Shown here one piece after another: positions 44,742 to 62,534 of a stretch of DNA of 64,000 nucleotides. Below the pieces are notes generated by a model. It was not told where the DNA came from and ran no database searches. It saw nothing but the letters and a program-made list of their open reading frames with translations. The translations under genes were made by a program, and so were the position numbers. Numbering within the stretch: the first letter of the stretch is position 1; every line of letters begins with the position of its first letter. The stretch is from Candidatus Omnitrophota bacterium (GTDB lineage Bacteria > Omnitrophota > Gorgyraeia > Gygaellales > Profunditerraquicolaceae): contig JBDRLN010000064.1 of NCBI GenBank assembly GCA_043812955.1, positions 326 through 64,325 on the forward strand. Direction: 5' to 3'.

Positions 44742-45756
44742 TAAGTGTATTCTTGATACAAATATCCCTTATATTAATTTTAATAACGACGGTGTTTGTA
44801 ATATATGCGTTGATCATCAAAAGGCTCTAACGGGTGAGCCGATTAAAGATTACGAAAGGTTAGAGAAAAAATTCGCAAAATTGGTAAAAACAAATAATAA
44901 AAAAATCAAGTATGACTGTTTATGCCTTTATAGCGGAGGCAAAGACAGCACTAATATGCTTTATAACCTAGTAAAAAAACACAATCTTAAAGTGTTGGCT
45001 TTTACGCTGGATAACTGGTTTCTCTCAAAACAAACCTACTCCAATATCAATAAGGTTTTATCGAAATTGAATATTGATCATATAATTTTCAAACCTTCCT
45101 GGAACTTAACGGAATCTTTATTTAAATCCGGGATTTATAAGACTGGAAATTCAAAAGAAGCTCAAAAAATGTCATTTCTGATAGGCCATGTTTGCTGGCC
45201 TTGTTTTGTTATGATTAGTATTTTTTCAATCAAAACAGCTTTAGAAAAGAATATACCCAATATTATAGTCGGCACTACTCCCGGTCAGCTTACCCAAAAG
45301 GAGAGCACTCTTTTAAGTAAATATTCCGGAATAACTGATGTGTATAAAAAAATGATACTCCCTTTTTTAAAAATACTGGATAACGATGAAAAATATTATT
45401 TGAATTTATCGCTGGGTGAAAAACTCAAGAGCCTAAAGCTTAAACTTGTACCTTTTTATGAATACCATCGATATTGCGAAGAAGACGTTTTTAAAACAGT
45501 TGAAACTGAATTTGGATGGCAAAAACCGCAGGATACTGATTCCTGCAGCAGTAATTGCTCGATTAATTCCCTGGGCATATTAATTCATAGGAAAAAATAT
45601 AATATCAGTCCGTATTTAATCCCCCTGGCTCATGATGTAAGGGAAGGCTTAGTAAATCGGGAGAAGGCCATGAGCGATACATCTTCAGTCATCGACGAAA
45701 ATCTGGCGCGGGATATGGCGGCAAAACTGAATATTAACTGCGAAGACATCTTATGA
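44722..45756 (+). CDS. N-acetyl sugar amidotransferase-like PP-loop ATP pyrophosphatase (WbuX/PseA-like)
   Basis: N-terminal Cys cluster CNKC...CNIC followed by the PP-loop YSGGKDST. Confidence 0.65.
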   Translation: MAYQVCNKCILDTNIPYINFNNDGVCNICVDHQKALTGEPIKDYERLEKKFAKLVKTNNKKIKYDCLCLYSGGKDSTNMLYNLVKKHNLKVLAFTLDNWFLSKQTYSNINKVLSKLNIDHIIFKPSWNLTESLFKSGIYKTGNSKEAQKMSFLIGHVCWPCFVMISIFSIKTALEKNIPNIIVGTTPGQLTQKESTLLSKYSGITDVYKKMILPFLKILDNDEKYYLNLSLGEKLKSLKLKLVPFYEYHRYCEEDVFKTVETEFGWQKPQDTDSCSSNCSINSLGILIHRKKYNISPYLIPLAHDVREGLVNREKAMSDTSSVIDENLARDMAAKLNINCEDIL

Positions 45757-47960
45757 GCTTTAGATTAATTAATTATATTATTTCTTATGCTCTAGTGGGC
45801 ACGGTATTAACCTACCTGGCTTGCTTTATTTATTTCAGAGACAGAAAAAACTGGTTATTCAAAATTTTCGCTCTTTACAATTTATCTATCGCCTGGTGGT
45901 GCATTTTCTCAATACCTGCAATAATAGCCCCTAATAACGAGACCGGCGTATTGTGGTGCAGAATATTTATCAGCGGCGTTATTTTTATGCCCACCCTGGT
46001 TCTGCATTGCGCTTATTTACTATTAGGATATTCAGATAATAATAAATGTAAACTTATATTAAAAATATCCTACCTGTTATCTTTTATATTTTTACTTTTA
46101 AACTTTACGCCTTTTTTAATTCCAGCGGCTGAAAAAAAGTCGACTTTACTTTCTTATACGGTACCGGGACCGTTTTTTCATCTTCATGTTTTACACTTCT
46201 TTTTTATTATGCTCTACGCAGAAACCCTTTATTTAACCCATTATTTAAAAATCAGGGTTAAGGAAAAAATAGAAAGCAGGAAATACCTGTATTATTTTCT
46301 TTCATCTGTCATAGCTACTTTAGGCGGTGGCGCCAATTATCTTCCTGTTTATAGGTTTGAAATTCCATTCCTGAATCCTTACGGGACATATACAATTCTT
46401 TTATACGCCTCAGTTGTTACTTATACAATTATCCGCTACCGCTTTCTAAATACGTCTGTTATTATTACTCGCGCGGGTATATTTTTAGGTGTTTACGCTA
46501 TTGTCCTGGGATGCCCGTTTATCCTCGCAACCTCAGGGAAAAGCCCTCTTGTCAATCTATTCGGCCCGCTTTGGTGGGCCGGGCCGTTGGTTTTAATGGC
46601 TTCTTTGGGGACCTTGGGACCGTTTGTTTATATCTCCCTGCGCAAAAAAGCCGATGCCATACTCTTAAGAGAACAGCTGCGCTATCAGGATATCTTAAAA
46701 CTGGCGGCAGTAGATATGACCCGGATCCGCAACCTGCAAAAATTACTGGATTTTATTGCCCAAATCATCACTGAATCTGTGCGCATTTCCCATTCAGTAA
46801 TATATTATTTTAATCCGGAGAGTAAGCGTTTTGAATTGAAAGCCGGGATCAACTTAAATAAAAACCAGCCAACTGTAATCGATAATAAAAATAAGTTAGC
46901 CGCTTGGCTCGAGAAAAACAAACTGCCTCTGGTTTATGAAGAGATTAGAGATAGATCTAAAAATCATCCTGAATTTGTGGAATTAGAAAAACAGATGCGT
47001 TTGTTAAATGCTGATGTGGCTTTACCCTGTATCCTGGAGAATAAATTACTGGATATTATTATATTGGGGAAGAAGCTTTCAGGAAATATCTATACCTCTG
47101 ACGATCTGGATAACTTCCTTACTTTAGCAAAAGAAACCGCCTTGGCTACGGAAAATGCCCAACTATATGGGAAAATAGAGGAAGATGTGAAGCAAAGGAC
47201 CAAAGACCTGGTGGAGCTTCAAAAACAACTTATCCAGGCAGAAAAATTAGCCACCGTAGGTACGCTTGCTGGCGGCGTAGCCCATGAAATAAATAATCCC
47301 CTGACTGCGATCTTAACTAATGTCCAGATGCTCTTAAGATCGGATGAGTTAGATAAAGAGTCGCTAGAGATGATCGAAGAAGCGACTAAACGCTGCAAGA
47401 CTATTGTTCAGAAATTAATGGTTTACGCCAAAAAACCGCATCAGGAAACAATCGCTCCTTCTAAGATAAATTTAAAGGATACTCTTAATAGCGCTATCGC
47501 CTTCCTGAAATATCAATTTGAGCAGGATAATATAAAAATCAATATCGATGCCCTCAGGGATACTTATTTAGTTGAAGGCAACCAGAATGAGCTAGAGCAG
47601 GTAATAACCAACATAATACTCAATGCCAAAGATGCCATTAAACAAATTAAAAAAAGTGGTATAATAGAGTTGTCTCTAACGCAAACTGAAAGTTCGGTTA
47701 AAGTTGAAATCAAGGATGATGGAGTAGGAATTTCTAAAGATATAATCAACCGGATATTTGACCCTTTTTTTACCACTAAAGACGTGGGTAAAGGCTTAGG
47801 CCTGGGACTTTCGATCTGCCAATCTATCCTGGAAAAACATAAAGGAAAAATCACGGTCCGCTCTGAAATTAATAAAGGAGCGGTGTTTACTATTATATTA
47901 CCCGGCTTAAAAGATATCGACAGAGCAAATAGCTTAAAAGATGGAGGCCGCAATGGCTAA
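45753..47960 (+). CDS. sensor histidine kinase: multi-TM (7TM-type) N-terminal domain + GAF + HisKA + HATPase
   Basis: 7-8 TM helices; H-box AHEINNPLTAI; G-boxes DDGVGI and GKGLGLGLSI. Confidence 0.85.
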   Translation: MSFRLINYIISYALVGTVLTYLACFIYFRDRKNWLFKIFALYNLSIAWWCIFSIPAIIAPNNETGVLWCRIFISGVIFMPTLVLHCAYLLLGYSDNNKCKLILKISYLLSFIFLLLNFTPFLIPAAEKKSTLLSYTVPGPFFHLHVLHFFFIMLYAETLYLTHYLKIRVKEKIESRKYLYYFLSSVIATLGGGANYLPVYRFEIPFLNPYGTYTILLYASVVTYTIIRYRFLNTSVIITRAGIFLGVYAIVLGCPFILATSGKSPLVNLFGPLWWAGPLVLMASLGTLGPFVYISLRKKADAILLREQLRYQDILKLAAVDMTRIRNLQKLLDFIAQIITESVRISHSVIYYFNPESKRFELKAGINLNKNQPTVIDNKNKLAAWLEKNKLPLVYEEIRDRSKNHPEFVELEKQMRLLNADVALPCILENKLLDIIILGKKLSGNIYTSDDLDNFLTLAKETALATENAQLYGKIEEDVKQRTKDLVELQKQLIQAEKLATVGTLAGGVAHEINNPLTAILTNVQMLLRSDELDKESLEMIEEATKRCKTIVQKLMVYAKKPHQETIAPSKINLKDTLNSAIAFLKYQFEQDNIKINIDALRDTYLVEGNQNELEQVITNIILNAKDAIKQIKKSGIIELSLTQTESSVKVEIKDDGVGISKDIINRIFDPFFTTKDVGKGLGLGLSICQSILEKHKGKITVRSEINKGAVFTIILPGLKDIDRANSLKDGGRNG

Positions 47961-48336: not shown

Positions 48337-48339
48337 GAT

Positions 48340-49566
48340 ATGAACAAAGCAGTCATTACAGGAGTCGGGGTAATTGCTCCAAACGGGATCGGTAAAGAGG
48401 AATACTGGAAAGCCTTGAAAAGCGGTACATCCGGGATAAGGCCGATCAGTGTTTTTGATTCCAGCTTATTTAAGGCCCACTTAGCCGCGGAAGTAATTAA
48501 TTTTGATCCGGTAACCTATTTGGGAGACAAGGGTTTAAGAAATCTGGACCGGGGAACTAAATTCCTTTGTTCCGCGGCCAAATTAGCCATAGACGACGCC
48601 AAGCTAGAGATTAACGATGATAATTCTAATGACATCGGAGTTGTTACAGCTACAACCTTGTCCGTTATCTGGAATATCTCCACATTCAGTAAAGAAGCCG
48701 AAGACGAAGGCCCTCAATTCGTAAACCCGGCCATGTTTCCCGGAACAACCATTAATGCCCCTTCAAGCCAGGTATCCATAAGATTCAATATAAAAGGCTT
48801 TAATACTACTATCTCCACAGGCTTTACCGCAGGTTTAGACAGCCTTAGGTACGCTATTGATTTTATTAAACTTGGCCGGGCAAAAGCGATTTTAGTCGCT
48901 GGAGTAGAATCTCTTTTTTTTCAGACCTTTGTTGGTTTCCATAAACTGGAATTCCTGGCCGGTATTAAAGGAGAAGAGGTATGCGCTCCTTTTGACCTGC
49001 GTAGAAACGGTATCATAATTGGAGAGGGGAGCGCCGTACTGATCCTGGAAAACGAAAAAGACGCTTTAAAAAGAAAAGCTAAAATATATGCTGAAGTTTC
49101 CGCGGTCGAGAATTTCTTCGACCCTTTTCGCAGCGGCAGATATAATCCCAAGGCCGAAGGATTAAAACGCTCAATTACCCATTCTTTAAAAAAAGCAAAA
49201 ATAAAAAACAGCGAAATAAATTATATCTCATCTTCTGCTAACTCAGTTCCGGCGCAGGATATGTTAGAAACTAAAGCGATTAAAGATGTTTTTGAAAACC
49301 AAGCAAGGAACATTCCGATTAGCTCTATTAAATCTATGATTGGAGAAGCGGTAAGCGCGTCAGGGATATTGCAGGTTGCTGCGTGTTTAGGGGCTATGGA
49401 GAATAATTTCATACCTCCGACCATAAATTACCAAGCACCTGACCCGGCTTGCGATTTAGATTATGTCCCCAATAAATCCCGGGATAAAAGGGTAGAAAAA
49501 GCCTTAATAACTAATTTTGGTCCGGGCGGAAACAATGCCGCAGCCATCATTGTGAAATATGAATAA
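48340..49566 (+). CDS. beta-ketoacyl synthase homolog lacking the catalytic Cys-His-His triad (KSbeta/chain-length-factor-like)
   Basis: Thiolase/KS fold, but the active-site position reads TGFTAGL (no Cys) and His positions read SSSANS / GEAVSASG. Confidence 0.75.
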   Translation: MNKAVITGVGVIAPNGIGKEEYWKALKSGTSGIRPISVFDSSLFKAHLAAEVINFDPVTYLGDKGLRNLDRGTKFLCSAAKLAIDDAKLEINDDNSNDIGVVTATTLSVIWNISTFSKEAEDEGPQFVNPAMFPGTTINAPSSQVSIRFNIKGFNTTISTGFTAGLDSLRYAIDFIKLGRAKAILVAGVESLFFQTFVGFHKLEFLAGIKGEEVCAPFDLRRNGIIIGEGSAVLILENEKDALKRKAKIYAEVSAVENFFDPFRSGRYNPKAEGLKRSITHSLKKAKIKNSEINYISSSANSVPAQDMLETKAIKDVFENQARNIPISSIKSMIGEAVSASGILQVAACLGAMENNFIPPTINYQAPDPACDLDYVPNKSRDKRVEKALITNFGPGGNNAAAIIVKYE

Positions 49567-50776
49567 GAATACCAGAATAGTAGTTACCGGCTTAGGAGTG
49601 ATCTCTGCTATCGGGATCGGAAAAAAGCAATTTTGGGATGCCGCACTTGCCGGGACATCCGGGATCAGCGATATCGTTTCTGTAGACACTACTGGTTTTA
49701 AATGCCATCGTGGCGGAGAAGTCAAAGATTTCCATCCTGAAGATTTTATTCCTAAAAGAAAGGTTAAATATCTTGGCCGGGCTTCACAACTGGCTATTGC
49801 CGCTGCTAAATTAGCCATTGAAGATAGCGGAATTGTATTTAAAGAAATACCTAAAACAAAACTAGGTGTCCTCGTGGGCACTACTATGGGCGAAAAACCT
49901 GTGGAAGAATTAATTCAGTCCTGGGTAAAAGGCGGATTAAAAGATTTAGACCGGCGCAGGATCCTTCAGGCCTCAGCCAATAATATATCGGCCAATGTAG
50001 CTTTGTATTTTAAAGCCAAAGCTCAGAATTATCTTTTTCCAACAGCCTGCGCAGCCGGAAACTACGCTATTGGATATGGATTTGATTTGATTAAAAGCGG
50101 CAGCTTGGATTTTGTTTTAGCCGGAGGGGCAGAACCTTTTTCTTATACCGCTTATATGGGTTTTCAACGGCTTTACGCCATGGCAACTGATAAATGCCAA
50201 CCCTTTGATAAAAACCGCAAAGGAATGATGTTAGGCGAAGGTTCAGGAATGCTTCTTTTAGAAAAACTGAAGTCAGCCCTGGAAAGAGGGGCGAATATCT
50301 ACGCCGAGATCTTAGGATACAGCCTATCCTGCGATGCCCATCATCCTACAGCTCCTGAAGTTGGCGGGATTTCTATGGTTATGGAAAAAGCCCTAAAGGA
50401 AACTAATATTTCTTATAAAGACGTTGATTATATCTGTTCTCACGGCACCGGCACACCGATGAATGATAAGGTTGAATCCCAGGCAATTAAGAATGTATTT
50501 AAAGAACGCTATAAAGATATACCGGTAAATTCCCTAAAATCAATGCTCGGACATAGCATGGGCGCTGCCTCAGCGATTGAGGCTTTATCCTGTTGCTTGT
50601 CGGTAAAAGAGGACCTGATCCCGCCGACTATAAATTACGAAACCCCTGACCCGGATTGCGATATAGATTGTGTCCCGAATGTCAAAAGAGAAAAAATTGT
50701 GAATATCGCCTTTAATAACGGTTTTGCTTTTGGCGGGAATAATTCCTGTTTAGTGATTAAAAAATTCATTAAATAA
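49559..50776 (+). CDS. beta-ketoacyl-ACP synthase (KAS II/FabF-like, KSalpha partner) with intact Cys-His-His
   Basis: PTACAAGNYAIG (Cys), CSHGTGTPMND (His), GHSMGAAS (His); overlaps the upstream KS by 8 nt. Confidence 0.85.
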   Translation: MNKNTRIVVTGLGVISAIGIGKKQFWDAALAGTSGISDIVSVDTTGFKCHRGGEVKDFHPEDFIPKRKVKYLGRASQLAIAAAKLAIEDSGIVFKEIPKTKLGVLVGTTMGEKPVEELIQSWVKGGLKDLDRRRILQASANNISANVALYFKAKAQNYLFPTACAAGNYAIGYGFDLIKSGSLDFVLAGGAEPFSYTAYMGFQRLYAMATDKCQPFDKNRKGMMLGEGSGMLLLEKLKSALERGANIYAEILGYSLSCDAHHPTAPEVGGISMVMEKALKETNISYKDVDYICSHGTGTPMNDKVESQAIKNVFKERYKDIPVNSLKSMLGHSMGAASAIEALSCCLSVKEDLIPPTINYETPDPDCDIDCVPNVKREKIVNIAFNNGFAFGGNNSCLVIKKFIK

Positions 50777-50921
50777 GTGAGGGCATAAGTTATGGAGCTG
50801 GACATAATAAACAAGGCGTCCGCCACAAAGTCGCCACAGGAATTGGCGACCCGCCAAGCTATGTGGAGGGATCGGCGGATCCGCCAATATTTATGGCGGA
50901 ACATAACTTATATATCCATAC

Positions 50922-51038
50922 TTATCCCGCCCTTTTGGCGTGATAAAAAACAAATTCTATCAAAAAAGCGGGATTAATTCGCAGACGGCCTTGCGGCCTA
51001 CGAATTGCGTCGTAAGAATCACTCCCTAAGTCGTCTGC
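50922..51038 (+). ncRNA. candidate structured 5'-leader element (copy B) upstream of the ACP gene: TCCCGC...GCGGGATTAATTCGCAGACGG-GGCCTTGCGGCC-...-CGTCTGC
   Basis: Homologous core with 16252-16344; outer helix GCAGACGG (50981-50988) / CGTCTGC (51032-51038) ends 5 nt before the RBS AAAGGAG. Confidence 0.4.
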
Positions 51039-51058
51039 TCATTAAAGGAGAGTATAAA

Positions 51059-51310
51059 ATGGCAAAAGACAACTTTACAGAAATAAAAAAAGATGTCAAA
51101 AATAAGGTTTCGGAGATCATTGAGGTTGGGGAAGAGAAGTTAAAAGATGAAACCAAATTCGTGGAAGACCTGGGAGTTGACAGCATGATGGCGCTGGAGA
51201 TCGTCGCCAGCATAGAGAAAAAATACAAGATCAGCATTCCCGAAGCGGACATACCCAAGATCCGCTGCCTTAATGATATCTACACAGTGCTTGAAAAAAC
51301 ATTGAAATGA
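51059..51310 (+). CDS. acyl carrier protein (discrete, cluster-associated)
   Basis: LGVDSMMALEIV phosphopantetheine-attachment motif (DSM variant); RBS AAAGGAGAG; 83 aa. Confidence 0.8.
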   Translation: MAKDNFTEIKKDVKNKVSEIIEVGEEKLKDETKFVEDLGVDSMMALEIVASIEKKYKISIPEADIPKIRCLNDIYTVLEKTLK

Positions 51311-51344
51311 AAATAATCGCTTTTCCCAATTATGAGGTGATAAA

Positions 51345-51791
51345 GTGAGTAACATATGGGATATAAATAAAATCCAGGAGATCCTGCCCCAAAGATATCC
51401 TTTTTTATTCATTGATAGCGTAGTAGAGATAAATGAAGAGGAAGGAAAGGTATCCTGCCTGAAAAACGTAAGTATTAATGATTACTTCTTTAGGGGGCAT
51501 TTTCCCGGAAACCCGGTTATGCCGGGAGTTATCATTATTGAGGCAATGGCCCAAGCCAGCATTATTCTTTACGCGGCTTTAAAACCGGAAATCGCCGTCA
51601 AACACCCGGTTTATTACCTGGGTAACGTGGATATCAAATTCCTCAAACCCGTATTGCCCGGCAACCAGCTTATCCTGCAAATTTCCAAAGAAAAAATAAT
51701 GGATAAGGCAGGCATTGTCAGCGCTGAGGCAAAAGTAAATAATGCAGTTGTAGCCAAAGGCAGGATTACCTTCGGGGTTCAGCCTAAATAA
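51345..51791 (+). CDS. 3-hydroxyacyl-ACP dehydratase (FabZ/FabA hotdog family)
   Basis: YPFLFIDSV ... FFRGHFPGNPVMPGVIIIEAMAQ. Confidence 0.85.
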   Translation: MSNIWDINKIQEILPQRYPFLFIDSVVEINEEEGKVSCLKNVSINDYFFRGHFPGNPVMPGVIIIEAMAQASIILYAALKPEIAVKHPVYYLGNVDIKFLKPVLPGNQLILQISKEKIMDKAGIVSAEAKVNNAVVAKGRITFGVQPK

Positions 51792-51869
51792 AATTATTGA
51801 CAAACGCGTAAATCCCATTTATAATCGTTCTTAGAAAGTATACATTAATGTTAACTAACAAGGAACGAT

Positions 51870-52550
51870 ATGGAAAAAGAATATGCCCTCAATCTATCCT
51901 CCCAAATCGGAATTGACGTACAGCAGGTGGTCAGAGAAGAGATCGAGCTTATTTTCCTTAAGGCCCTTTTTGAATCAAAAATTTCAGATTCATTAGTTTT
52001 TAAGGGCGGCACAGCCCTGCGGCTTATATATAATTCGCCGCGTTTCTCAGAGGACCTCGATTTTTCCCTGACTGCCGCGATAACCTACCGTGATTTTAAA
52101 ACAATAATTTCCAGGATAATCAAATCGGATGATCGTTTTTCCATAAACGACCTGGCTGAAAAATTTTACACCTGCCTGGCTGAAATCCGGGTAAAAGAAG
52201 CCTGGATGGACCAGGCATTCTCGCTTAAAATCGAAGTATCTAAACGCCCGGAAAAAATAAAATCAGCGAATCTCGCAAATATGCTGGCAAAATCTCCCGC
52301 TACCAACTTAATGGTCATGACTAAGGTATATACGCTTAAAAAGATACTTGAAGATAAACAGCGTTTGCTTTCCGAACGAAAAATGCCCCGGGACATCTTT
52401 GATACCTGGTATATCTGCCAAAAAACCGGGGAACCATTTACTTTTAAACAATTCGGTTATCCCAAAGGAAAAATCCGCCAGGAATTAAGAAAATTTCTTC
52501 CCCGCGGTTTTTACTCGGTTATTGATGAACTGGAGAAATTAAATGCTTAA
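51870..52550 (+). CDS. AbiEii/AbiGii-family nucleotidyltransferase (type IV TA toxin-like)
   Basis: FKGGTALRLIYNSPRFSEDLDFS nucleotidyltransferase motif. Confidence 0.6.
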   Translation: MEKEYALNLSSQIGIDVQQVVREEIELIFLKALFESKISDSLVFKGGTALRLIYNSPRFSEDLDFSLTAAITYRDFKTIISRIIKSDDRFSINDLAEKFYTCLAEIRVKEAWMDQAFSLKIEVSKRPEKIKSANLANMLAKSPATNLMVMTKVYTLKKILEDKQRLLSERKMPRDIFDTWYICQKTGEPFTFKQFGYPKGKIRQELRKFLPRGFYSVIDELEKLNA

Positions 52551-53124
52551 GGTATATGAAGCCCTGCTTAATTTAGATAAACGCTACCTTAGCGCCAGGG
52601 AAATAGCGCGCATACTCAATATCAGCTCCGGAAATAGAAAAGTATCGATAAGCAGGCTTACAAAGAGGAAGATACTGCGTAGGCTCAGGCGCAATCTTTA
52701 CGAAGTATCGCTAAAACCAACGGATATCCTTGAAGCCGCTAACAGCGTTTACCAACCGAGTTATCTTTCATTTACCTATTGCCTGGGCAAACTCGGGTTA
52801 TTGAACCAGATCGCTTATGAAATAGAATTTGCCACCCCAAAGAAAACAAAGAGGATTGAAATCCGCGGCCGCGGCGTGATCTTCCGCAAAATTAAAAAAG
52901 AATTATTTTTTGGTTACGAGCTTAACGACAATATTTTTACAGCGAAGCCTGAGAAGGCGCTTTTGGATACATTATATTTAAAAACAAAAGGCCTGGCGGT
53001 TATCAATGAGAAAGAACTTAATCTTAAAGATATTAATAAACAGAAAATAATCACGATGAGCAGGAAATTTCCGCTCAAAGTCCAGCAAGAAACAAAAAAA
53101 CTTATTTCAAAATATGTCAAATAA
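52543..53124 (+). CDS. AbiEi-like antitoxin/transcriptional regulator (winged-helix N-domain)
   Basis: N-domain LSAREIARILNIS...RLTKRKILRRLRRNLYEV resembles the AbiEi antitoxin domain; 8-nt overlap with the upstream NTase gene. Confidence 0.5.
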   Translation: MLKVYEALLNLDKRYLSAREIARILNISSGNRKVSISRLTKRKILRRLRRNLYEVSLKPTDILEAANSVYQPSYLSFTYCLGKLGLLNQIAYEIEFATPKKTKRIEIRGRGVIFRKIKKELFFGYELNDNIFTAKPEKALLDTLYLKTKGLAVINEKELNLKDINKQKIITMSRKFPLKVQQETKKLISKYVK

Positions 53125-54214
53125 ACCCGCGATATTCCTGACCGGAGCTACGGGATTAGTCGGATCATACCTATTAAAACTATTCCTGGAAAAAAACCAT
53201 AAAGTTTTTGCCTTAGGCAGGGGTAAAAACGAGAAAACTACCATAGAAAGGGTAATGGAGGTTTTGAGATTCTGGGATAAAAATATACCAAACAGCAAAA
53301 TTAATAATCTCCAGATTATAGAAGGCGACGTAGCTGAAAATAATCTAGGGCTGGATAAAAACAGCAGAAAAATGCTGGCTCTGGAGACAGAAGAAATCTT
53401 CCATTCCGCAGCTATCACTGATCTGCACCGGCCGATAAAAGAAATCAACAAGGTCAACGTAGGTGGCACCAGAAACATCATGATTTTCGCTGAAAAACTG
53501 AATAAAGAACGCCTGGTAAAAGTAAATCACATCAGCACCGCTTATATTTACGGCAATTATAGGGGCGTATTCAAGGAAGATTCCCTAGACGTCAAACAGA
53601 AATTTAATACCAATTATGAAAGTTCCAAGTTCGAAGCCGAAAAACTGATCAGTGAATTCCGCAAGAAAGGACTTTGGATAGATATTTTTCGGCCGTCAAT
53701 GGTTACCGGAGACACCAAAACCGGAAAGACCTTCCAATTCCGCCATATCTACCAATTCATTAACCTCTGCTGCTTAGAAATATTTGACACCCTGCCGCTG
53801 AAAAACGGTAGGGTAAGCTTGGTTCCTATAGATGTTTTCTCCGAAGCCGCGTATGTTATAACCAGGAAGAACCGGGCCAAATGCGCGAATTATCATCCTT
53901 TTCCGGCTAAACTGGTCAGCGTGGAGAAAATCGTTGATTTAGGCCATCAGATCATTGGCTTTAAGAAGCCAAAATTGGTCCTGCCCGAAGAATTCCGGAT
54001 GGATACCCTGACTCCTTCCCAGAGATTAATTCTACGGGGAACTATTCTGGCAATAAACTTCCAGACTAAGCTTAATTCTAACTATACTAAGCAAATCTTA
54101 AAAAAATATCATTTTAATATGCCTGAAATCACCAATAAATTGCTGGCTAAGAATATTGAATATTTCAAGGATAATATCCGAATCGGAGGCGTCTACCATG
54201 ACCGGAAGATTTGA
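53114..54214 (+). CDS. thioester-reductase (TR) domain protein / fatty acyl reductase (NAD_binding_4, SDR-type)
   Basis: IFLTGATGLVGSYLL Rossmann motif; FHSAAITD...NVGGTRNIM...VNHISTAYIYG matches TR-domain blocks. Confidence 0.7.
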   Translation: MSNKPAIFLTGATGLVGSYLLKLFLEKNHKVFALGRGKNEKTTIERVMEVLRFWDKNIPNSKINNLQIIEGDVAENNLGLDKNSRKMLALETEEIFHSAAITDLHRPIKEINKVNVGGTRNIMIFAEKLNKERLVKVNHISTAYIYGNYRGVFKEDSLDVKQKFNTNYESSKFEAEKLISEFRKKGLWIDIFRPSMVTGDTKTGKTFQFRHIYQFINLCCLEIFDTLPLKNGRVSLVPIDVFSEAAYVITRKNRAKCANYHPFPAKLVSVEKIVDLGHQIIGFKKPKLVLPEEFRMDTLTPSQRLILRGTILAINFQTKLNSNYTKQILKKYHFNMPEITNKLLAKNIEYFKDNIRIGGVYHDRKI

Positions 54215-55472
54215 TTACATAATCGTGGGCGCCGGCCTCTGCGGACTTACTTTAGCCAAAGGACTTAGCCAGAAAAACAAAAAAGTCCTGGTCTTGGAAC
54301 AGGGTGGCTATATTAAGAAATTTGGCAATTTATTATACGCAGCTTCAATTTACGATAAATTCACTCTATCTAAAAGTAGACAGGGATTTATAATTCTGCG
54401 CTCATTTGGAGTAGGCGGAACAAGCATAGTCAGCTGCGGCAATGCCGTGGAATTTCCTGAGGAAGAAATAAATAAGATAGGTATAGATTTCCGCAGCGAA
54501 TTGGATTCAGCAAAAAAAGAATGCTGCCAAACCACCAAACACCCTATTGGAAAAGCTTCAATGAAGATAATGAAAACTGCTAATCAATTAGGATACGATA
54601 TGCAACCAATGCCCAAACTCGGTTTAGAAAAATGTGTATCTTGTGGCAATTGCATTTTAGGGTGCGGTCATCTGGCAAAATGGACTGCAGCAGAATACCT
54701 CAAAGATATTAATAAACATGATGTTTGTATAATTACCGGTTTTAAAGTCAAAAAGGTATTGAGCTCCGCTGGTAAAGCAATAGGAATAGAAGGAAGCGGT
54801 GGTTTATTCTCAAGTCAAAAATATTTTTCCGATAAAATAATCCTTTCTGCCGGAGGTATCGGTACTCCGATCATATTGCAAAAATCAGGAGTAGAAGAAG
54901 CTGGAAAAAGTCTTTTTGTGGATTTTTTCACCAATATATACGGGATCAATAAAGAATTTAACCAGGCTAAAGAAGTAAGTATGTCGGTGGTCTGCGCAAA
55001 ATTTCACAAGAAAGACGGCTTTATACTTTCACCTTTTATTGACAGTTCAATCGGGCTTTTAGCCTGCGTTGAGATTAAACACGCCGGTTACGCTCTAAAG
55101 CTAAATAGCCTGATGGGATTAATGAATAAAATTAACGATGATAATGTTGGCCGGGTTTATCCCAACGGCGCTGTTGACAAAGCACTCACTCAAAATGACT
55201 GGAAAAAATTAAGAAAAGGCAATGAAATAGCTACAGAAATCCTGATTAAAAGCGGGGTGAATCCTAAGAGTATATTTATTACCTTGCCCAGAGGAGCGCA
55301 TCCCGGAGGAACAGCTGCTATTGGTAAAGTTGTAAATACCAGCTTAGAGACTAAAATAAAAAATCTTTACGTTTGTGATTGCAGTGTATTACCGGAAGCT
55401 CCCGGTTTTCCGCCAATCTTGACCCTGATCGCCATTTCCAAATGGTTTGCTAAGAATGTTTTGTTGAAATAA
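54198..55472 (+). CDS. GMC-family FAD-dependent oxidoreductase-like protein
   Basis: N-terminus DYIIVGAGLCGLTLA (FAD fingerprint); C-terminal GGTAAIGKVVNTSLETKIKNLYVCDCSVLP resembles the GMC C-terminal motif; start at 54198 after RBS GGAGG. Confidence 0.55.
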   Translation: MTGRFDYIIVGAGLCGLTLAKGLSQKNKKVLVLEQGGYIKKFGNLLYAASIYDKFTLSKSRQGFIILRSFGVGGTSIVSCGNAVEFPEEEINKIGIDFRSELDSAKKECCQTTKHPIGKASMKIMKTANQLGYDMQPMPKLGLEKCVSCGNCILGCGHLAKWTAAEYLKDINKHDVCIITGFKVKKVLSSAGKAIGIEGSGGLFSSQKYFSDKIILSAGGIGTPIILQKSGVEEAGKSLFVDFFTNIYGINKEFNQAKEVSMSVVCAKFHKKDGFILSPFIDSSIGLLACVEIKHAGYALKLNSLMGLMNKINDDNVGRVYPNGAVDKALTQNDWKKLRKGNEIATEILIKSGVNPKSIFITLPRGAHPGGTAAIGKVVNTSLETKIKNLYVCDCSVLPEAPGFPPILTLIAISKWFAKNVLLK

Positions 55473-56056
55473 TGAGCATATTAAAATTAATTAAACAAAG
55501 AACAGCGGTTAGAAAGTATAAAAATAAAGCTATTTCTGCTAAAAGAATAGCAAAAATAATAGAGGCTGGAATATGGGGCCCGTCTATTCATGGTATACAA
55601 TCTTGGAAATTCGTAATAGTACATAATAAAAACATAATTAATAAAATTTCGAATATAACGGCTAAAAAATCTAAAAAAATTAATATTCCAACTTTTATTT
55701 CAATTCCGACTATAAAAGCACTCGCCAGTACAGAAATACTCATTTGCATATATAATACCAGAAAATTTAGCTTATTTGCCAGTAGATTAAATAAGTTATA
55801 TAAGAAGAATGCTGAAGTTGCAGAATTATCAGCAATTTCGGCAGCTATTCAGAATATGATTCTTACTGCAGAAGACCTTAAAATTGGGTCGTGTTGGCTA
55901 GATATGCCATTGTTCTGCAAAGAGGATATCAGCCATATAATAAAAGAACCTACAGGAGAATTAGTAGCGCTTTTAACTCTAGGGTATGCTGTCGACACAA
56001 GAAAATATAGAACACCACGTAAAATAACTAAAGAAACAGTTAGGTATCTAAAATAG
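55472..56056 (+). CDS. nitroreductase-family flavoprotein
   Basis: LIKQRTAVRKYKNKAIS N-terminal nitroreductase motif; size ~190 aa. Confidence 0.65.
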   Translation: MSILKLIKQRTAVRKYKNKAISAKRIAKIIEAGIWGPSIHGIQSWKFVIVHNKNIINKISNITAKKSKKINIPTFISIPTIKALASTEILICIYNTRKFSLFASRLNKLYKKNAEVAELSAISAAIQNMILTAEDLKIGSCWLDMPLFCKEDISHIIKEPTGELVALLTLGYAVDTRKYRTPRKITKETVRYLK

Positions 56057-56058
56057 GC

Positions 56059-57513
56059 ATGAATAAGGAGTACGATATAATAATTATTGGGGCTGGAATC
56101 GGCGGACTAACCTGTGGTTGTTATCTGGCGAAGGCTGGCTTAAAGGTTCTAATCGTAGAGCAACATTATAAAGCAGGAGGATATTGCACTTCTTTTGAAA
56201 GGCAGGGGTATAAATTTGATGTTGGAGTACATTATTTCGGAGGAATAAAAAAAGGTATTTTAAGTGTTATCCTTGATGACTTAAATTTAAGAAAAACAAT
56301 AAAGTTTAAACAGTTTAATCCTACCGATAAAATAATTACCCCAAAAGCTACCACATATATTAGGTCTAATCCCAAAGATACTATCCGAGAATTTAAGGAT
56401 AACTTTCCATCGGAAAACATGAACATTGATGCATTCTTTAAATTTATAAAACAAGATAATTTTATTAATATTTACAAAAGAACATCAAAGGTGACTTTTA
56501 ATGATGTCTTGGACGAATTTTTTAAGAACCAGGTTTTAAAAGCTACCTTTAACGTCCTTTTAAGGAATATCGGATTATGCGCCAACGATGCATCGGCCCT
56601 AGCAACAATAATATTCCTGAGAGAATACATACTTGATCCCGGATATTATCCTGAAGGCGGAATACAAAAATTTCCTGAAGCCCTACTCGATAAATTCAGG
56701 GAATATGGCGGAATGGTTATGTTAGCTCAAAAGGTAAATAAAATTATTACCGGGAATAATCAAGTTAGGGGTGTCCGGCTTAAGAACGAAAAAACAATTA
56801 AAGCCAGGTATGTAATTTCAAATGCCGATGTCACTGAAACCTTTGGGGAATTGCTTGATATAAAAACAGAGGAATTAAAAAAAATAAGGAAGTTAGCTAT
56901 TTCACCTTCGGCTTTTATTGTTTACCTTGGCTTAAATGAAGATTTCATAAAGCAGATAAAGGATCCGTGCAATATATGGCCTTTTTCAACTTATAGCCTG
57001 ACCAAATCTCCAATTAATCATAAGAACGACATACTTAAAGGAAAACCATTATTAAGCTTACTTACTTTTCCTCATTCCCATGATTTAACTTATAAAAATC
57101 GGAAAAAACCAACAATGCAATTAATGGGGTTAACTTATTATGAATCAAAAGGATTTTGGGCAAAAAATAGAGACAAACTAACTAATAAATTGATAATAGA
57201 AGCTGAAAAATTATTTCCGTCTTTGAAGAAATATATTGTTATAAAAGAGAGCGCTACACCAATTACCTGTAAAAGATATACTTCAAACAGCTATGGCTCT
57301 GCTTTTGGCTGGGCTTCAACAGTTAAACAAATTAATCCTTTAGCTTCTCCGGCAAAAACCTCTATTAAAGGATTATTTCTCACTGGACATTGGTGTACTG
57401 TGGGAAGCGGACAGGGAGGGATCCCAAAAGTAGCTTTCTCTGGCAGAAGAACAGCTAGTTTAATTTTGAAGGAATGTGCCATAAAGTCGTATTTAAGTGA
57501 CTACCTATTATAA
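56059..57513 (+). CDS. phytoene-desaturase-family (CrtI-like) FAD-dependent oxidoreductase/desaturase
   Basis: YDIIIIGAGIGGLTCGCYLAKAGLKVLIVEQHYKAGGYCTSF dinucleotide-binding motif; amine-oxidase/CrtI-like length. Confidence 0.7.
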   Translation: MNKEYDIIIIGAGIGGLTCGCYLAKAGLKVLIVEQHYKAGGYCTSFERQGYKFDVGVHYFGGIKKGILSVILDDLNLRKTIKFKQFNPTDKIITPKATTYIRSNPKDTIREFKDNFPSENMNIDAFFKFIKQDNFINIYKRTSKVTFNDVLDEFFKNQVLKATFNVLLRNIGLCANDASALATIIFLREYILDPGYYPEGGIQKFPEALLDKFREYGGMVMLAQKVNKIITGNNQVRGVRLKNEKTIKARYVISNADVTETFGELLDIKTEELKKIRKLAISPSAFIVYLGLNEDFIKQIKDPCNIWPFSTYSLTKSPINHKNDILKGKPLLSLLTFPHSHDLTYKNRKKPTMQLMGLTYYESKGFWAKNRDKLTNKLIIEAEKLFPSLKKYIVIKESATPITCKRYTSNSYGSAFGWASTVKQINPLASPAKTSIKGLFLTGHWCTVGSGQGGIPKVAFSGRRTASLILKECAIKSYLSDYLL

Positions 57514-57520
57514 TTAAAAA

Positions 57521-59740
57521 ATGAATATTTATACCAATTCCTCAATTCTCATCTTTTTTTCAAGCATATTACTTCTCATAATTACTTTAATGAAAGGTGG
57601 GGGGAGAAGAATAGCTGGCATATGGTCATTCACAAGCCTAGCAATATCATTTTGGGGATTTGGTGGATATAAATTTTCCACTGCGACTTCGGATAAAGAT
57701 GCATTCTTCTGGTGGCAAATAGCGCATATTGGTGTTATATTTACACCGATTTTATTTTATCATTTTGTCTATGATTTCTTAAAATTAAATAAAAAATATC
57801 AAAAATTATTACTTTATGCCTTATATATAATAGGCTTCTTTTTATTAATACTTAACTTCATACCCTCGCGTAACATATTTCTCGGACAGGTAAGACTTTA
57901 TTTTACACACGATCGGTATTTTATTCATTATTGGCCGGATAATAGAAATATCTTATACTTATTGTTTTATATTTTCTTCTATTGGATTCTACTTATATAT
58001 GCTTTTTTAATTCTCATAAACGCTTACAAAAATTCAAAAGGAATATTGCGTAATCAATTAAAATATTTCATATTAGGTTCTTTAATCGCCTGGGTTGGCC
58101 CTCATGGTGATTACCTACCTGTTTTTGGAATTAACATTTATCCTTATTCAAATTTTTTAATTGGAATTTATCCCTTAATTTTTGTATACGCTATACTTAA
58201 GTATAGGTTAATGGATATTACATTAGCTTTTACTCGCGCTAGCATATTCTTAGTCACATATACTTTAATCTTAGGCATACCATTTGCTGTAGCAACTATT
58301 TTTAAAGATAAACTAATCGCTATATTCGGGGGAAATTGGTGGATTTCTCCTTTAGTATTAATGGGTATTCTAGCTACTGTTGGCCCATTTATTTACATCT
58401 ACCTTAACCGTAAGGCGGAAGAGGCGCTGTTAAGAGAGCAGAAACGCTATCAAAACACCTTAAAGCAGGCTTCAATAGGAATGACCCGGATCCGTAATTT
58501 AAGAAGGCTGCTGGAATTGATCGCCCATATCGTTACCAAAACCGTTAAAATAGCTTACGTAGCAATTTATCTTTATGACCCGGATACCGATGAATATATC
58601 CTGCAAGTCAGCCGGGATAAAGGGAGAATATCTATCCCTAAAGTGCCGGCGGATAACCCTTTAATTAAATGGATAATATTAAAGCGCCAACCCCTAATTT
58701 ACGAAGAAGTTAAACACCAGATGGGAGAAAACAACAAAGAACTATATAAATTACTGGAAGAGAACATGCGGCTTTTAACCGCCTCAGTGATCATTCCCAG
58801 CCTTTTAGAGAAAAAACCAATGGGCTTTATTGTCTTGGGAGATAAGATGTCCGGGCAAATTTATACCCTTGACGATTTAAACGTCTTCCAGGTACTGGCC
58901 AGCCAGGCAGCCCTGGCGATTGAAAACGCTAAATTTATCGAAGAAGCTAAAGAGATGCAGGTTCAAATCGCCCAGGCTGAAAAAATGGCTACTATCGGAA
59001 CTATGGCTGACGGCTTATCGCATCAGATAAATAACCGTTTTTACGCGCTATCATTAATAGCCGGTGATAGTATTGACACTATCAAGCATACCGACATTAC
59101 CAATTGCACTCCGGAGATAAAAGAAATGGTTAACCAGATCAATCACGCCTTAGAACGCATCCAGACTAATGTCGGGCAGGGGAGCGAGGTAGTCAAGGGT
59201 ATCTTAAAATATACCCGCAAAGAAGAAGCGGTATTTGAAGTAATATCCTTAGACCAGGTTATTAACGGCACCCTGGAAATGGTCCAATACAAGGTCAAGC
59301 TATCTGAAATTGATATTATCCGTGATTATCCTATAGACATCCCCAGGTTAAAGGCCAATCTGGTCCAGCTGGAAGAGGTATTTTTTAATTTTGTGGATAA
59401 TGCCTATGATTCCATAGTTGAACGCCGCAATCTGCTAAAAGAACCGGGTTACCGGGGAAAGATTATAATCTCGGCTAAAGCTAATGGGAAAGTATTAGAA
59501 ATCGTAGTCCAGGATAATGGCTTGGGCGTAAAAGAAGAAAACATCAAAAAAGTATTTACCCCGTTTTTTACCACCAAGGTCTCTTCGCGCAAAGGCACCG
59601 GCCTTGGGCTTTACGTAATTAATAAAATCGTCACTGACGGGCATAAAGGTAAAATCAACTTCGCCTCCCAATACAAGGTAGGCACCCGATTTACCCTGGA
59701 ACTGCCGATTAATCAGGATACTCCCGCGTCCACCCCGTAG
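57521..59740 (+). CDS. sensor histidine kinase paralog (7TM-type domain + GAF + HisKA + HATPase)
   Basis: Paralogous to 45753-47960 (e.g. LLREQKRYQNTLKQASIGMTRIRNLRRLLELIAHIV vs LLREQLRYQDILKLAAVDMTRIRNLQKLLDFIAQII); H-box LSHQINN; G-box GTGLGLYV. Confidence 0.85.
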   Translation: MNIYTNSSILIFFSSILLLIITLMKGGGRRIAGIWSFTSLAISFWGFGGYKFSTATSDKDAFFWWQIAHIGVIFTPILFYHFVYDFLKLNKKYQKLLLYALYIIGFFLLILNFIPSRNIFLGQVRLYFTHDRYFIHYWPDNRNILYLLFYIFFYWILLIYAFLILINAYKNSKGILRNQLKYFILGSLIAWVGPHGDYLPVFGINIYPYSNFLIGIYPLIFVYAILKYRLMDITLAFTRASIFLVTYTLILGIPFAVATIFKDKLIAIFGGNWWISPLVLMGILATVGPFIYIYLNRKAEEALLREQKRYQNTLKQASIGMTRIRNLRRLLELIAHIVTKTVKIAYVAIYLYDPDTDEYILQVSRDKGRISIPKVPADNPLIKWIILKRQPLIYEEVKHQMGENNKELYKLLEENMRLLTASVIIPSLLEKKPMGFIVLGDKMSGQIYTLDDLNVFQVLASQAALAIENAKFIEEAKEMQVQIAQAEKMATIGTMADGLSHQINNRFYALSLIAGDSIDTIKHTDITNCTPEIKEMVNQINHALERIQTNVGQGSEVVKGILKYTRKEEAVFEVISLDQVINGTLEMVQYKVKLSEIDIIRDYPIDIPRLKANLVQLEEVFFNFVDNAYDSIVERRNLLKEPGYRGKIIISAKANGKVLEIVVQDNGLGVKEENIKKVFTPFFTTKVSSRKGTGLGLYVINKIVTDGHKGKINFASQYKVGTRFTLELPINQDTPASTP

Positions 59741-59762
59741 GTGGAGTCCACCTACGGGGTGG
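59730..59762. repeat. Family-C hairpin: CCACCCCGTAGGTGG-AGT-CCACCTACGGGGTGG (15-bp stem, 3-nt loop) spanning the histidine kinase stop codon
   Basis: Read directly; same core as the hairpin at 15831-15863. Confidence 0.8.
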
Positions 59763-59873
59763 AATATAGTCAAAGTAATTGACAACCAGGCTAAATAGCG
59801 ATATCTTGTACATCTGTACCCATGATCAAAGTCATAATCTTTGATGTTTTTTTAAAACAGGAGAAGAGCTTAA

Positions 59874-60242
59874 ATGGCAAAGATACTTATTGTTGACGAC
59901 GAGAATGACGTGCTGGAGTTCGCGGCAAATTTCTTCCGCAAGCGCAAGATTGGAGTGGCTGTGGCTACCAGCGGAGAAGAAGCCTTAAGTAAATTAGAGG
60001 CTGAAGCCCCGGATTTAATATTGCTGGACATTCAAATGGGGGGGATCAATGGGATTGAAACCCTGGAACGCCTGCGCCAGATGAATGGTAACATTAAGGT
60101 CATCATGGTTACCGGCAAGGCCCCTATGGCGGACGGGGCGCTGGAAAAATGCCTGAATTTAGGCGCGCTGGCTTATATCCACAAACCACTTAAGTTGGAT
60201 GAACTTGAAAGGGTAGTCCTTAAAACTTTAGGCGCAAAATGA
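59874..60242 (+). CDS. stand-alone response-regulator receiver protein
   Basis: ILIVDDE ... LILLDIQMGGINGIE. Confidence 0.85.
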   Translation: MAKILIVDDENDVLEFAANFFRKRKIGVAVATSGEEALSKLEAEAPDLILLDIQMGGINGIETLERLRQMNGNIKVIMVTGKAPMADGALEKCLNLGALAYIHKPLKLDELERVVLKTLGAK

Positions 60243-61405
60243 ATATCAATTACAAAAAAGAGCTAGAGCTGGCGGCAAAGAATATGATCATGGTCCACGA
60301 ACCCGACTTACTGATCAAGATGATCGCCCGCACTATTGTCCAGAAAGTCGGAATTAAACACGCCGGCATATTACTTCATAATGAAGAAGAGAAGAGTTAT
60401 ATCTTAAACGTCTCCCACGGAGCCAAAGGCATAAAAATCCCGGCGGGTTTTGCCCGCATAGATTATGACAACGCCCTTATCCGGATATTCCAGGAAAACA
60501 AGAAAAATCCCTTCTTGGAAAACGGATCATTTATTTACCATAATGTAAAAAAAGTAATAGCTAATCACAGCTATCCTCCTGAATTCAAAGAACTCTTGAG
60601 TCAGTCATTATATCAAATGGAAATTTTTGATTCCATAGCCTGCATTCCCAGTTATTTTCGGGATGACCTTTTAGGCGTATTGCTTCTGGGAGCAAAAACT
60701 GATAACCAGAATTTTGAACAGGAAGAATTGGATTTTTTTACCGCCCTGGCTTCGGATGTAGCTATGGCTATTCGCAACGCCCAGCTGTTTAAGGAATTGG
60801 AAGGCGAACTGCAAAAAAAACGCCGTTTGTTTATTAATACTACCGTGGCCTTAGCCGCTGCAGTTGACGCCAAAGACCACTATACCCACGGCCATATTAA
60901 CCGGGTAACCGCTATATGCCTAGAGATAGCCAAAGAGCTGAATCAAAAAAATAAAAAAACTTTTGATGAGAAGTTTATGGAAAACTTACATATCGCCAGC
61001 CTCCTGCACGATATCGGAAAGATCGGCATCCCGGAATATATCCTGAATAAAGAAGGCCCATTAAACGAAGAGGAGAGGCAGAAGATAAATGAACACCCGA
61101 TGATCGGAGTTACCATCCTTCAGCCGATAAGTGAACTAGACGAGGCAATAATGGGAGTAAAACACCACCATGAAAGATATGATGGCCTGGGGTATCCCAG
61201 CGGTTTAAAAAAAGAGGAGATCCCTATGATTGCCGCAATAATATCTGTAGCTGACACCTATGACGCCATGACTTCTAATAGGCCATACCGTAAAGCCCTG
61301 GATAAAGATCAAGCCCTGAATGAGATCAAAAACCAGATCGGAAAACAATTTCATCCGTCAATAGCCGCTGTATTCGTCGAACTTTTTAATGAAGGCAAGA
61401 TATAA
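60239..61405 (+). CDS. GAF-domain HD-GYP phosphodiesterase (c-di-GMP hydrolase family)
   Basis: HDIGKIGIP (HD) and HHERYDGLGYP (GYP) motifs; N-terminal GAF-like region. Confidence 0.8.
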   Translation: MNINYKKELELAAKNMIMVHEPDLLIKMIARTIVQKVGIKHAGILLHNEEEKSYILNVSHGAKGIKIPAGFARIDYDNALIRIFQENKKNPFLENGSFIYHNVKKVIANHSYPPEFKELLSQSLYQMEIFDSIACIPSYFRDDLLGVLLLGAKTDNQNFEQEELDFFTALASDVAMAIRNAQLFKELEGELQKKRRLFINTTVALAAAVDAKDHYTHGHINRVTAICLEIAKELNQKNKKTFDEKFMENLHIASLLHDIGKIGIPEYILNKEGPLNEEERQKINEHPMIGVTILQPISELDEAIMGVKHHHERYDGLGYPSGLKKEEIPMIAAIISVADTYDAMTSNRPYRKALDKDQALNEIKNQIGKQFHPSIAAVFVELFNEGKI

Positions 61406-61407
61406 TC

Positions 61408-62523: not shown

Positions 62524-62534
62524 TTTTTTTTGAT

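Follow-up and report, generated by a model that had tools for sequence, protein, structure and literature searches.

In signaling systems of the RpfC/RpfG kind (e.g., Xanthomonas RpfG and P. aeruginosa PA4781), a kinase controls, by way of a receiver, an HD-GYP domain that hydrolyzes cyclic di-GMP (c-di-GMP), and in PmGH of Persephonella marina (4MCW) an HD-GYP domain is joined to a GAF domain within one protein. A locus that resembles both was analyzed in a 64-kb stretch of Omnitrophota DNA (the window, a term used here for the whole stretch), which was annotated with open reading frame (ORF) calls, Pfam and NCBIfam. The locus encodes two sensor histidine kinases (HK1 and HK2), two receiver-only response regulators (RR1 and RR2) and, directly after RR2, a GAF-HD-GYP protein that is a predicted phosphodiesterase, all set amongst genes for acyl-chain and glycolipid enzymes. 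HK1, RR2 and the HD-GYP protein are each identical to an NCBI protein entry assigned to a Candidatus Omnitrophota metagenome-assembled genome. In the reading preferred here, which is given roughly even odds (a probability of about 0.5), HK2 would phosphorylate RR2, RR2 would modulate the HD-GYP protein, and c-di-GMP would control lipid tailoring. Omnitrophota are uncultured, very small bacteria. The locus represents a defined, testable signaling unit in this phylum, consisting of two kinase-receiver pairs and a predicted phosphodiesterase; the unit is conserved phylum-wide, in physical linkage with genes for glycolipids and acyl chains.

The likeness to each described system is partial. Compared with RpfG, the receiver and the HD-GYP domain are encoded here by separate genes (4-nt overlap, ATGA), which places the pair outside the RpfG family; the HD-GYP protein has a GAF domain in addition, and any coupling would act in trans. 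The HD-GYP domain matches that of PA4781 in both sequence and fold. PmGH agrees with the present protein in its GAF-HD-GYP architecture, in seven of its eight metal ligands, and in having the substrate lysine and the GYP motif, whereas its E185 is replaced by Tyr215 here and in all orthologues, and a fixed kinase-receiver-glycolipid context has not been described for it. On the kinase side, PrsK of the PrsK/PrsR pair (PEP-CTERM/exosortase, TIGR02916) has a similar layout, in which an N-terminus with multiple transmembrane (TM) helices is followed by GAF and the kinase core, and HK1 residues 19-717 align end to end with positions 10-679 of the PrsK model. However, HK1 and HK2 score 108.7 and 80.6 bits against a cut-off of 300, and their partners are receiver-only proteins rather than sigma-54 activators; annotation of the window's ORFs revealed no exosortase or PEP-CTERM gene and no sigma-54-dependent PrsR partner. 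An assignment to PrsK, considered for the end-to-end alignment, was discarded because of the scores, the kind of partner and the gene neighborhood. Acidobacterial relatives are paired with regulators of ~460-530 aa, a size that, taken alone, fits the sigma-54 (PrsR-like) type. DesK/DesR of Bacillus also combines a multi-TM sensor having negligible external loops with adjoining lipid-modifying genes, a likeness that suggests membrane-state sensing; the present kinases differ in having the HisKA_7TM region plus two helices and an added GAF domain, a DNA-binding regulator is lacking, and a second-messenger output is proposed. RR1 and RR2 resemble the single-domain receivers CheY, Spo0F, DivK and MrrA in size (~120-130 aa) and in their intact phosphorylation residues, and differ from them in that no chemotaxis, Hpt or phosphorelay partner is present in the locus. 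HisKA_7TM sensors have been described previously, their ligand being unknown (PMC5847659, PMC6944256). Each part of the locus is of a known kind, and the arrangement is a lineage-wide kinase/receiver/GAF-HD-GYP/glycolipid cassette; it was not found described in the papers searched on HisKA_7TM, on Omnitrophota histidine kinases, or on HD-GYP proteins with GAF domains or stand-alone receivers, a silence that is not proof of novelty.

The bond between RR2 and the HD-GYP protein extends well beyond the window. Altogether, 94 fetched loci were scored with the window's proteins, and the neighborhoods of six HK1 homologues and three HD-GYP homologues (nine loci in all, each with tables of its genes and Pfam domains) were inspected; a metagenome scan with the HD-GYP protein gave 5 loci, too few for statistics, and three HD-GYP-anchored contigs (L092, L093 and L094) were used instead. 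Wherever an HD-GYP orthologue occurs and the sequence extends far enough, the gene directly upstream is of the RR2 type, the distance from the RR2 stop to the HD-GYP start being -15 to +4 nt in most loci and about 270 nt in L027. The two proteins are equally conserved (61-66% identity to orthologues for RR2 and 59-65% for HD-GYP). Orthologues of each fall into more than 120 clusters and are unfused, those of RR2 all being 115-145 aa in length and those of HD-GYP being of constant length, with a divergence like that of RR2. The NCBIfam model of the fused REC-HD-GYP regulator is covered jointly by RR1, RR2 and the HD-GYP protein.

By all sequence criteria the HD-GYP enzyme looks competent. Pfam assigns HD_5/HD and GAF domains to it (GAF 26.0 bits against a cut-off of 22.4), and the motifs HDIGKIG and HHERYDGLGYP, from which the gene after RR2 had been named a GAF-HD-GYP, are present. 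Its best solved relative is PmGH (E 5.2e-36), and mapping onto 4MCW identifies seven ligands of a two-metal site (H219, H257, D258, H286, H310, H311 and D339), the substrate lysine (K261) and the GYP motif (G318-Y319-P320), while the position of the third-metal ligand of PmGH (E185) is taken by Tyr215. The ligands, K261, the GYP motif and Tyr215 are all invariant in 22-26 orthologues, and the metal ligands, on whose presence the preliminary description of this DNA had staked its proposal, are therefore conserved. According to Galperin and Chou (bioRxiv 10.1101/2021.11.05.467447), proteins of the two-metal subgroup are recognized by their lack of the third-metal Glu, and the replacement by Tyr215 predicts that the enzyme belongs to this subgroup. 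The AlphaFold model of the protein (predicted local distance difference test score, pLDDT, of 74) has a GAF domain at about residues 22-160, and Foldseek returned 4MCW as the top match over the full length (390 columns), with HD-GYP domains from PA4781 and DvhD next and GAF domains after them. Homology also connects residues 3-198 with the linker-plus-GAF segment of both kinases (E 1e-14 to 1e-15, ~29% identity), which points to one shared sensor module in all three proteins.

The two kinases are indeed paralogues, with 34% identity over their full length (E 7e-122). Both match HisKA_7TM (PF16927) in Pfam, HK1 with 36.9 bits over residues 15-234 and HK2 with 62.9 bits over 12-234 (gathering cut-off 28.6), and both match HATPase_c (85.7 and 78.7 bits, respectively); the Pfam HisKA domain was matched in HK1 and not in HK2, and the Pfam GAF domain in HK2 and not in HK1. 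The GAF domain of HK1 aligns with that of HK2 and is seen as a GAF fold at residues 328-448 in the AlphaFold model of HK1 (mean pLDDT 79), and HK2 has its phospho-acceptor at H501 (GLSHQINN) despite the missing HisKA match, with D665 and the G-boxes kept. The catalytic residues of HK1 are H511, N624 and D655, together with its G-boxes. Across a family alignment of 32 sequences, HK2 among them, the phospho-acceptor His does not vary, nor do the N, G1 and G2 boxes, and both kinases carry this set of features, which defines class I sensor histidine kinases. A 7TM-GAF layout had been proposed for both proteins; the HisKA_7TM and GAF regions are there, and the number of predicted TM helices rises to nine. 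In the HK1 model these helices (3-29, 34-57, 62-91, 97-117, 140-168, 172-200, 207-228, 235-261 and 276-304) are joined by short loops, with seven filling the HisKA_7TM span and the last two being additional, and TM9 is followed by a linker helix, the GAF domain, a long signaling helix that runs into the DHp domain (H511), and the CA domain. The picture from a hydropathy scan was rough and partial, with TM segments clear at either end of this region in HK1 and HK2 and TM5-7 of HK1 missed, and when the full HK1 model was used in a fold search, kinase cores were the only matches and nothing was learned on the TM domain. Identity between HK1 and HK2 varies by region, from 26% in TM1-7 to 50% in TM8-9, 70% in the linker, 36% in GAF, 39% in DHp and 30% in CA. 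The long identical stretches formerly placed at the GAF/HisKA junction are absent, the longest identical run there being 4 aa (QAEK) and the longest overall 7 aa (MTRIRNL), in the TM9-to-GAF linker. No DNA repeat joins the HK1 and HK2 genes beyond short chance-level matches (the best being 24 nt at 83%).

Both response regulators match Pfam Response_reg and carry no further domain, which makes them single-domain response regulators and agrees with the earlier statement that they lack a DNA-binding output domain. Their phosphorylation residues are all intact (D13, D14, D57, T90 and K112 in RR1; D8, D9, D52, T80 and K104 in RR2), they are 32% identical to each other, and their closest solved relatives are the single-domain receivers Spo0F, CheY and RR468, with Spo0F the best for RR2. 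In two-component systems, the segments after the His and receiver helix 1 set partner choice. The kinases form two orthogroups, each with its own near-invariant H-box/DHp helix-1 sequence: HK1 orthologues have the H-box GVAHEINNPLTAILTN, and all HK1-type proteins carry the H-box together with the helix GVAHEINNPLTAILTNVQMLL, while all HK2-type proteins carry the H-box GLSHQINNRFYALSLIAGD. The receivers likewise form two orthogroups with distinct helix-1 sequences, the RR1 type with a near-invariant helix 1 of its own plus an insertion of five residues, and the RR2 type with a different near-invariant helix 1 (DVREFAANFFRKRKI). These distinct, near-invariant sequences argue for HK1/RR1 and HK2/RR2 being two insulated pathways rather than a recent redundancy. 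The alpha4-beta5-alpha5 face of the RR2-type receivers (YIHKPLELDELERVV) is also near-invariant.

Comparison of the related loci demonstrates which genes are fixed and which are exchanged. A recurring Omnitrophota frame comprises HTH_17, variable genes, an HK2-type kinase, an RR2-type receiver, GAF-HD-GYP, a glycosyltransferase (GT) resembling monogalactosyldiacylglycerol (MGDG) synthase, an LpxL-like acyltransferase (AT) and a GT2; it was found in the window and in L002, L010, L011, L013, L014, L017, L027, L092, L093 and L094, all of which, including the last three chosen by HD-GYP, have the order HK2-RR2-HD-GYP-GT-AT. The order of GT, acyltransferase and GT2 after HD-GYP is shared by L002, L011, L013, L092, L093 and L094. 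The three contigs reached via HD-GYP alone (L092, L093 and L094) have the frame without HK1/RR1. Where an HK1-type kinase occurs, an RR1-type receiver is always present, and PlsC and SRPBCC-reductase genes lie nearly always just upstream (L001-L009, L011, L013 and L035). Identity to orthologues is 53-62% for HK2, 40-57% for HK1 and 44-76% for RR1, the HK2/RR2/HD-GYP set being better conserved than HK1/RR1. HK1/RR1 is an anciently diverged, optional pair that moves with the PlsC/SRPBCC-acyl-ACP-reductase module (ACP, acyl carrier protein).

The genes in between are of many types. The cargo of L003 is nearly the same as that of the window, and other loci differ: across genomes the cargo includes sets of ketosynthase (KS), ACP, dehydratase and reductase genes (window and L003), radical SAM enzymes, PEMT/ICMT and other methyltransferases, 4HBT thioesterases, NMO-type reductases, aldehyde dehydrogenase, aminotransferase, GDSL lipase and extra receiver-only genes. 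In other loci, the place of the genes at 43644-45756 in the window is taken by a gene for a radical SAM enzyme, for a methyltransferase or for PEMT, and in a compact form of the locus (L013) a single methyltransferase separates RR1 from HK2. Because these genes vary by genome while the frame recurs, the signaling genes would be better described as a conserved frame and the biosynthetic "island" as exchangeable cargo. The preliminary description, whose coordinates for the five signaling ORFs agree exactly with the ORF list, had the two kinases bracketing a biosynthetic island; the gene positions were right, and the picture appears to be inverted.

The cargo of related genomes also provides the link to c-di-GMP. 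PilZ-methyltransferase fusions of ~450 aa are encoded in L002 (12566-13915), L004 (12201-13619), L007 (13615-14967), L019 (27-1394) and L035 (14720-16069), and a PilZ-4HBT thioesterase fusion of 256 aa is encoded in L094 (6469-7239), directly upstream of HK2. The PilZ domains of L002, L007, L019, L035 and L094 exceed the Pfam PilZ cut-off and that of L004 is a precomputed Pfam PilZ hit, and six of the six fusions keep RxxxR...[D/N]xSxxG. Neither architecture is listed in the PilZ survey consulted. Several Omnitrophota loci encode GGDEF proteins. Within the window, the three PilZ genes noted earlier do exist, 15-20 kb upstream of the kinase locus; those at 24351-24704 and 26001-26357 score 39.7 and 42.0 bits (PilZ cut-off 22.5), and that at 30740-31057 scores 20.4 bits, under the cut-off, yet has both RxxxR and [D/N]xSxxG. 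Each adjoins a metabolic gene: the first stops 1 nt short of gpsA (24706-25704), the second has 4 nt in common with hom (26354-27649), and the third shares 1 nt with lysC (31057-32271). The suggested tie between these proteins and the kinase locus was dropped, since each is paired with a housekeeping enzyme gene and nothing links it to the locus; the gene order might reflect c-di-GMP-dependent control of gpsA, hom and lysC products. Output of the locus through c-di-GMP turnover and protein-protein contacts, as initially suggested in place of transcription, is favored because RR2 and HD-GYP are adjacent and conserved in parallel, the two-metal ligands are intact, and PilZ-enzyme fusions occur in related loci; what stands against this part of the suggestion is the conserved HTH_17 gene at the locus head.

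The preferred reading could operate as follows. HK2, and HK1 where present, would sense a putative signal within the membrane, and the cytoplasmic GAF domain may bind a second ligand; intramembrane sensing is suggested because the kinases have nine TM helices, no sizeable external domain, and strongly conserved TM8-9 and linker regions. Each kinase would transfer its phosphate to its own receiver-only partner. Phosphorylated RR2 would then act in trans, through a presumed contact, on the adjacent GAF-HD-GYP, like an RpfG split into two genes, setting the local hydrolysis of c-di-GMP, its putative substrate. Finally, c-di-GMP would control the lipid and glycolipid enzymes, and with them the predicted lipid product, post-translationally, and would do so directly in those related genomes with PilZ-methyltransferase or PilZ-thioesterase fusions. 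A far-reaching extension of this scheme, which is doubtful as a whole, is a phylum-wide, c-di-GMP-gated lipid tailoring in which 9TM-GAF kinases would read the membrane, a receiver would switch GAF-HD-GYP, local c-di-GMP would gate the PilZ-fused lipid enzymes and the neighboring glycolipid synthase and acyltransferase, and the slot between HTH_17 and HK2 would be a hot spot for swapping acyl-chain chemistry. The proposed hot-spot slot holds sets resembling type II fatty acid or polyketide synthases, reductases, methylases and desaturases, and its toxin-antitoxin and transposase genes would mark gene traffic.

Several observations weigh against the preferred reading. In the window there is no PilZ domain in the cargo and no GGDEF gene, and in L001 an HK2 is present with neither RR2 nor HD-GYP downstream. 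A hairpin and a promoter-like box lie between HK2 and RR2 (Table 1), and the two genes may thus not be co-transcribed; a comparably strong hairpin is found at the HK2 stop of L002, and a similar promoter box in the spacers of L002 and L093. As promoter-like sites are not enriched in 44500-64000 (55 observed versus 56.6 in shuffled sequence), single sites are only hints, and it is only as a hint that RR2 and the downstream genes may have their own promoter. Transcriptional output also becomes possible inside the locus through the HTH_17 gene, which the preliminary description had overlooked and orthologues of which (E 1e-11 to 1e-34) hold the same locus-head position in 17 related loci. The receivers could accordingly be pictured as connectors or phosphorelay intermediates leading to this BldC/excisionase-like protein or to a distant regulator that drives the gene array, with HD-GYP a separate, GAF-regulated enzyme, an explanation that is considered rather unlikely. 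It would suit the arrangement of the genes, which between 41259 and the window end (64000) are all on the + strand with short gaps, the extra receiver-only genes of several related loci, and the best solved match of RR2 to the phosphorelay protein Spo0F. That similarity is generic among single-domain receivers, however, and no Hpt or Spo0B-like gene was found in the nine tabulated loci; the window contains no DNA-binding response regulator, RR1 and RR2 being its sole REC domains, and HTH_17 is common in this genome (two more at 14522-15420) and is perhaps a general feature.

The chain from RR2 to HD-GYP may also be illusory, the genes being merely co-located. HD-GYP would then be a one-component enzyme driven by its GAF ligand, and the response regulators would bind lipid enzymes or kinases as phosphate sinks or allosteric partners. 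Self-contained GAF-HD-GYP proteins are already known as the PmGH family, and the HD-GYP protein, which has its own GAF sensor, could work without any receiver; the GAF-HD-GYP protein Tlr0485 is regulated by cAMP through its GAF domain (bioRxiv 10.1101/2021.11.05.467447). No REC-(GAF)-HD-GYP fusion was found in the best 120 homologues of HD-GYP or of RR2, which leaves the "split RpfG" argument resting on adjacency and generic REC similarity, and the occurrence of the same GAF module in HK1, HK2 and HD-GYP would allow one ligand to drive all three in parallel. Such an absence of coupling is nonetheless unlikely given that the adjacency of RR2 and HD-GYP is invariant with stop and start codons that overlap or abut, that the two are conserved to an equal degree, and that the near-invariant alpha4-beta5-alpha5 face of RR2 suggests a fixed protein partner. 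As to the substrate, c-di-GMP and cGAMP (3'3'-cyclic GMP-AMP) cannot be told apart from sequence: V-cGAP3 (5Z7C) also matches the HD-GYP protein well (E 4.6e-29), and its loop DAKSPYTAGH resembles the N-terminal loop DAKDHYTHGH. An enzyme that targets 3'3'-cGAMP, or a non-catalytic receptor in place of a c-di-GMP hydrolase, is still highly improbable, since PmGH, which acts on c-di-GMP, is the better sequence match and the best structural match, the seven two-metal-site ligands and the GYP motif are invariant, and PilZ domains, which are c-di-GMP receptors, are present in the window and in related cargo.

If the receiver does control the HD-GYP protein in trans, the locus would demonstrate a route from output-less receivers to second-messenger turnover, and c-di-GMP binding by the PilZ-enzyme fusions, if it occurs, would add lipid modification to the processes controlled by this messenger. 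Were c-di-GMP-gated tailoring true, c-di-GMP would be linked to membrane-lipid composition, a link that was not found in the literature searched. For annotation, cluster borders in Omnitrophota genomes are easier to place once the cargo is recognized as swappable and the regulatory frame around it as conserved.

Table 1. Features of the kinase locus, with positions in the window
Feature	Position	Strand	Basis
HTH_17 (excisionase/BldC-like) DNA-binding protein, 62 aa, locus head	41259..41447	+	Pfam HTH_17 5.9e-17; NCBIfam excisionase/BldC-like
PlsC-type acyltransferase, first gene of module A	41479..42072	+	Pfam Acyltransferase 8.1e-25
SRPBCC (lipid-binding) domain fused to acyl-ACP-reductase-like domain	42062..43633	+	Pfam Polyketide_cyc and Shikimate_DH-type NAD fold; NCBIfam AcACP_reductase 5.5e-41, under cut-off
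Second acyl-ACP-reductase-like protein, variable slot	43644-44741	+	domain scans
WbuX-like PP-loop amidotransferase, variable slot	44722-45756	+	domain scans
HK1: 9-TM, GAF, HisKA, HATPase sensor kinase, 735 aa	45753-47960	+	Pfam, alignment, AlphaFold
RR1: receiver-only response regulator, 131 aa, overlaps HK1 stop	47941-48336	+	Pfam Response_reg
KS, variable cargo (cargo span 48340..57513)	48340-49566	+	
Second KS, variable cargo	49559-50776	+	
ACP, variable cargo	51005-51310	+	
FabZ-like dehydratase, variable cargo	51345-51791	+	
AbiEii/AbiEi-like pair, variable cargo	51870-53124	+	
Thioester reductase, variable cargo	53114-54214	+	
GMC oxidoreductase, variable cargo	54156-55472	+	
Nitroreductase, variable cargo	55472-56056	+	
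CrtI-family desaturase, variable cargo	56059-57513	+	
HK2: 9-TM, GAF, divergent DHp, HATPase sensor kinase, 739 aa, invariant core	57521-59740	+	Pfam, alignments
Perfect 15-bp hairpin, 3-nt loop, CCACCCCGTAGGTGG AGT CCACCTACGGGGTGG, over HK2 stop, no T-tract after	59730-59762	+	
Promoter-like TTGACA-17-TATCTT, then ribosome-binding site for RR2	59779-59807	+	
RR2: receiver-only response regulator, 122 aa	59874-60242	+	Pfam Response_reg
GAF-HD-GYP phosphodiesterase (predicted), PmGH family, two-metal subgroup, 388 aa	60239-61405	+	Pfam HD_5/HD and GAF
UgtP/MGDG-synthase-like glycosyltransferase, conserved downstream trio	61408-62523	+	Pfam/NCBIfam
LpxL/PatA-like acyltransferase, conserved downstream trio	62535-63392	+	Pfam/NCBIfam
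GT2, conserved downstream trio, cut by window end	63392 onward	+	Pfam/NCBIfam

Some further features of the cargo and of the wider window were observed. The adjacent KS genes share a 63-nt stretch of 84% identity near their 3' ends (49411-49473 and 50618-50680), the only sizeable direct repeat of the region. A perfect sigma-70 consensus (TTGACA-17-TATAAT) lies at 51797-51825, ahead of the AbiEii-like nucleotidyltransferase gene, the toxin gene coming first and the AbiEi-like gene second; AbiEii is also found within the equivalent cargo of other loci at differing positions (L003 16845-18090, L005 12350-13569 and L006 16726-17983). An RHS/YD-repeat toxin gene (L005 14073-18041) and a Y1 transposase gene (L092 1188-1715) lie in or beside the variable slot, which fits a hot spot of gene traffic. 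Besides the gene at the locus head, the window encodes two HTH_17 proteins, a bactofilin with a C-terminal HTH_17 (14522-15028) and a second small HTH_17 protein (15112-15420). An Rfam search revealed no riboswitch or known RNA in the HK2-RR2 spacer, and five tRNAs only in the whole window. The only large minus-strand gene of the window is a 1078-aa ORF at 4221-7457 with no Pfam match. A CdaA-type c-di-AMP synthase (a DAC domain preceded by the TM region typical of the CdaA N-terminus) is encoded at 20909-21658, and a second cyclic-dinucleotide system is thus encoded in the same window.

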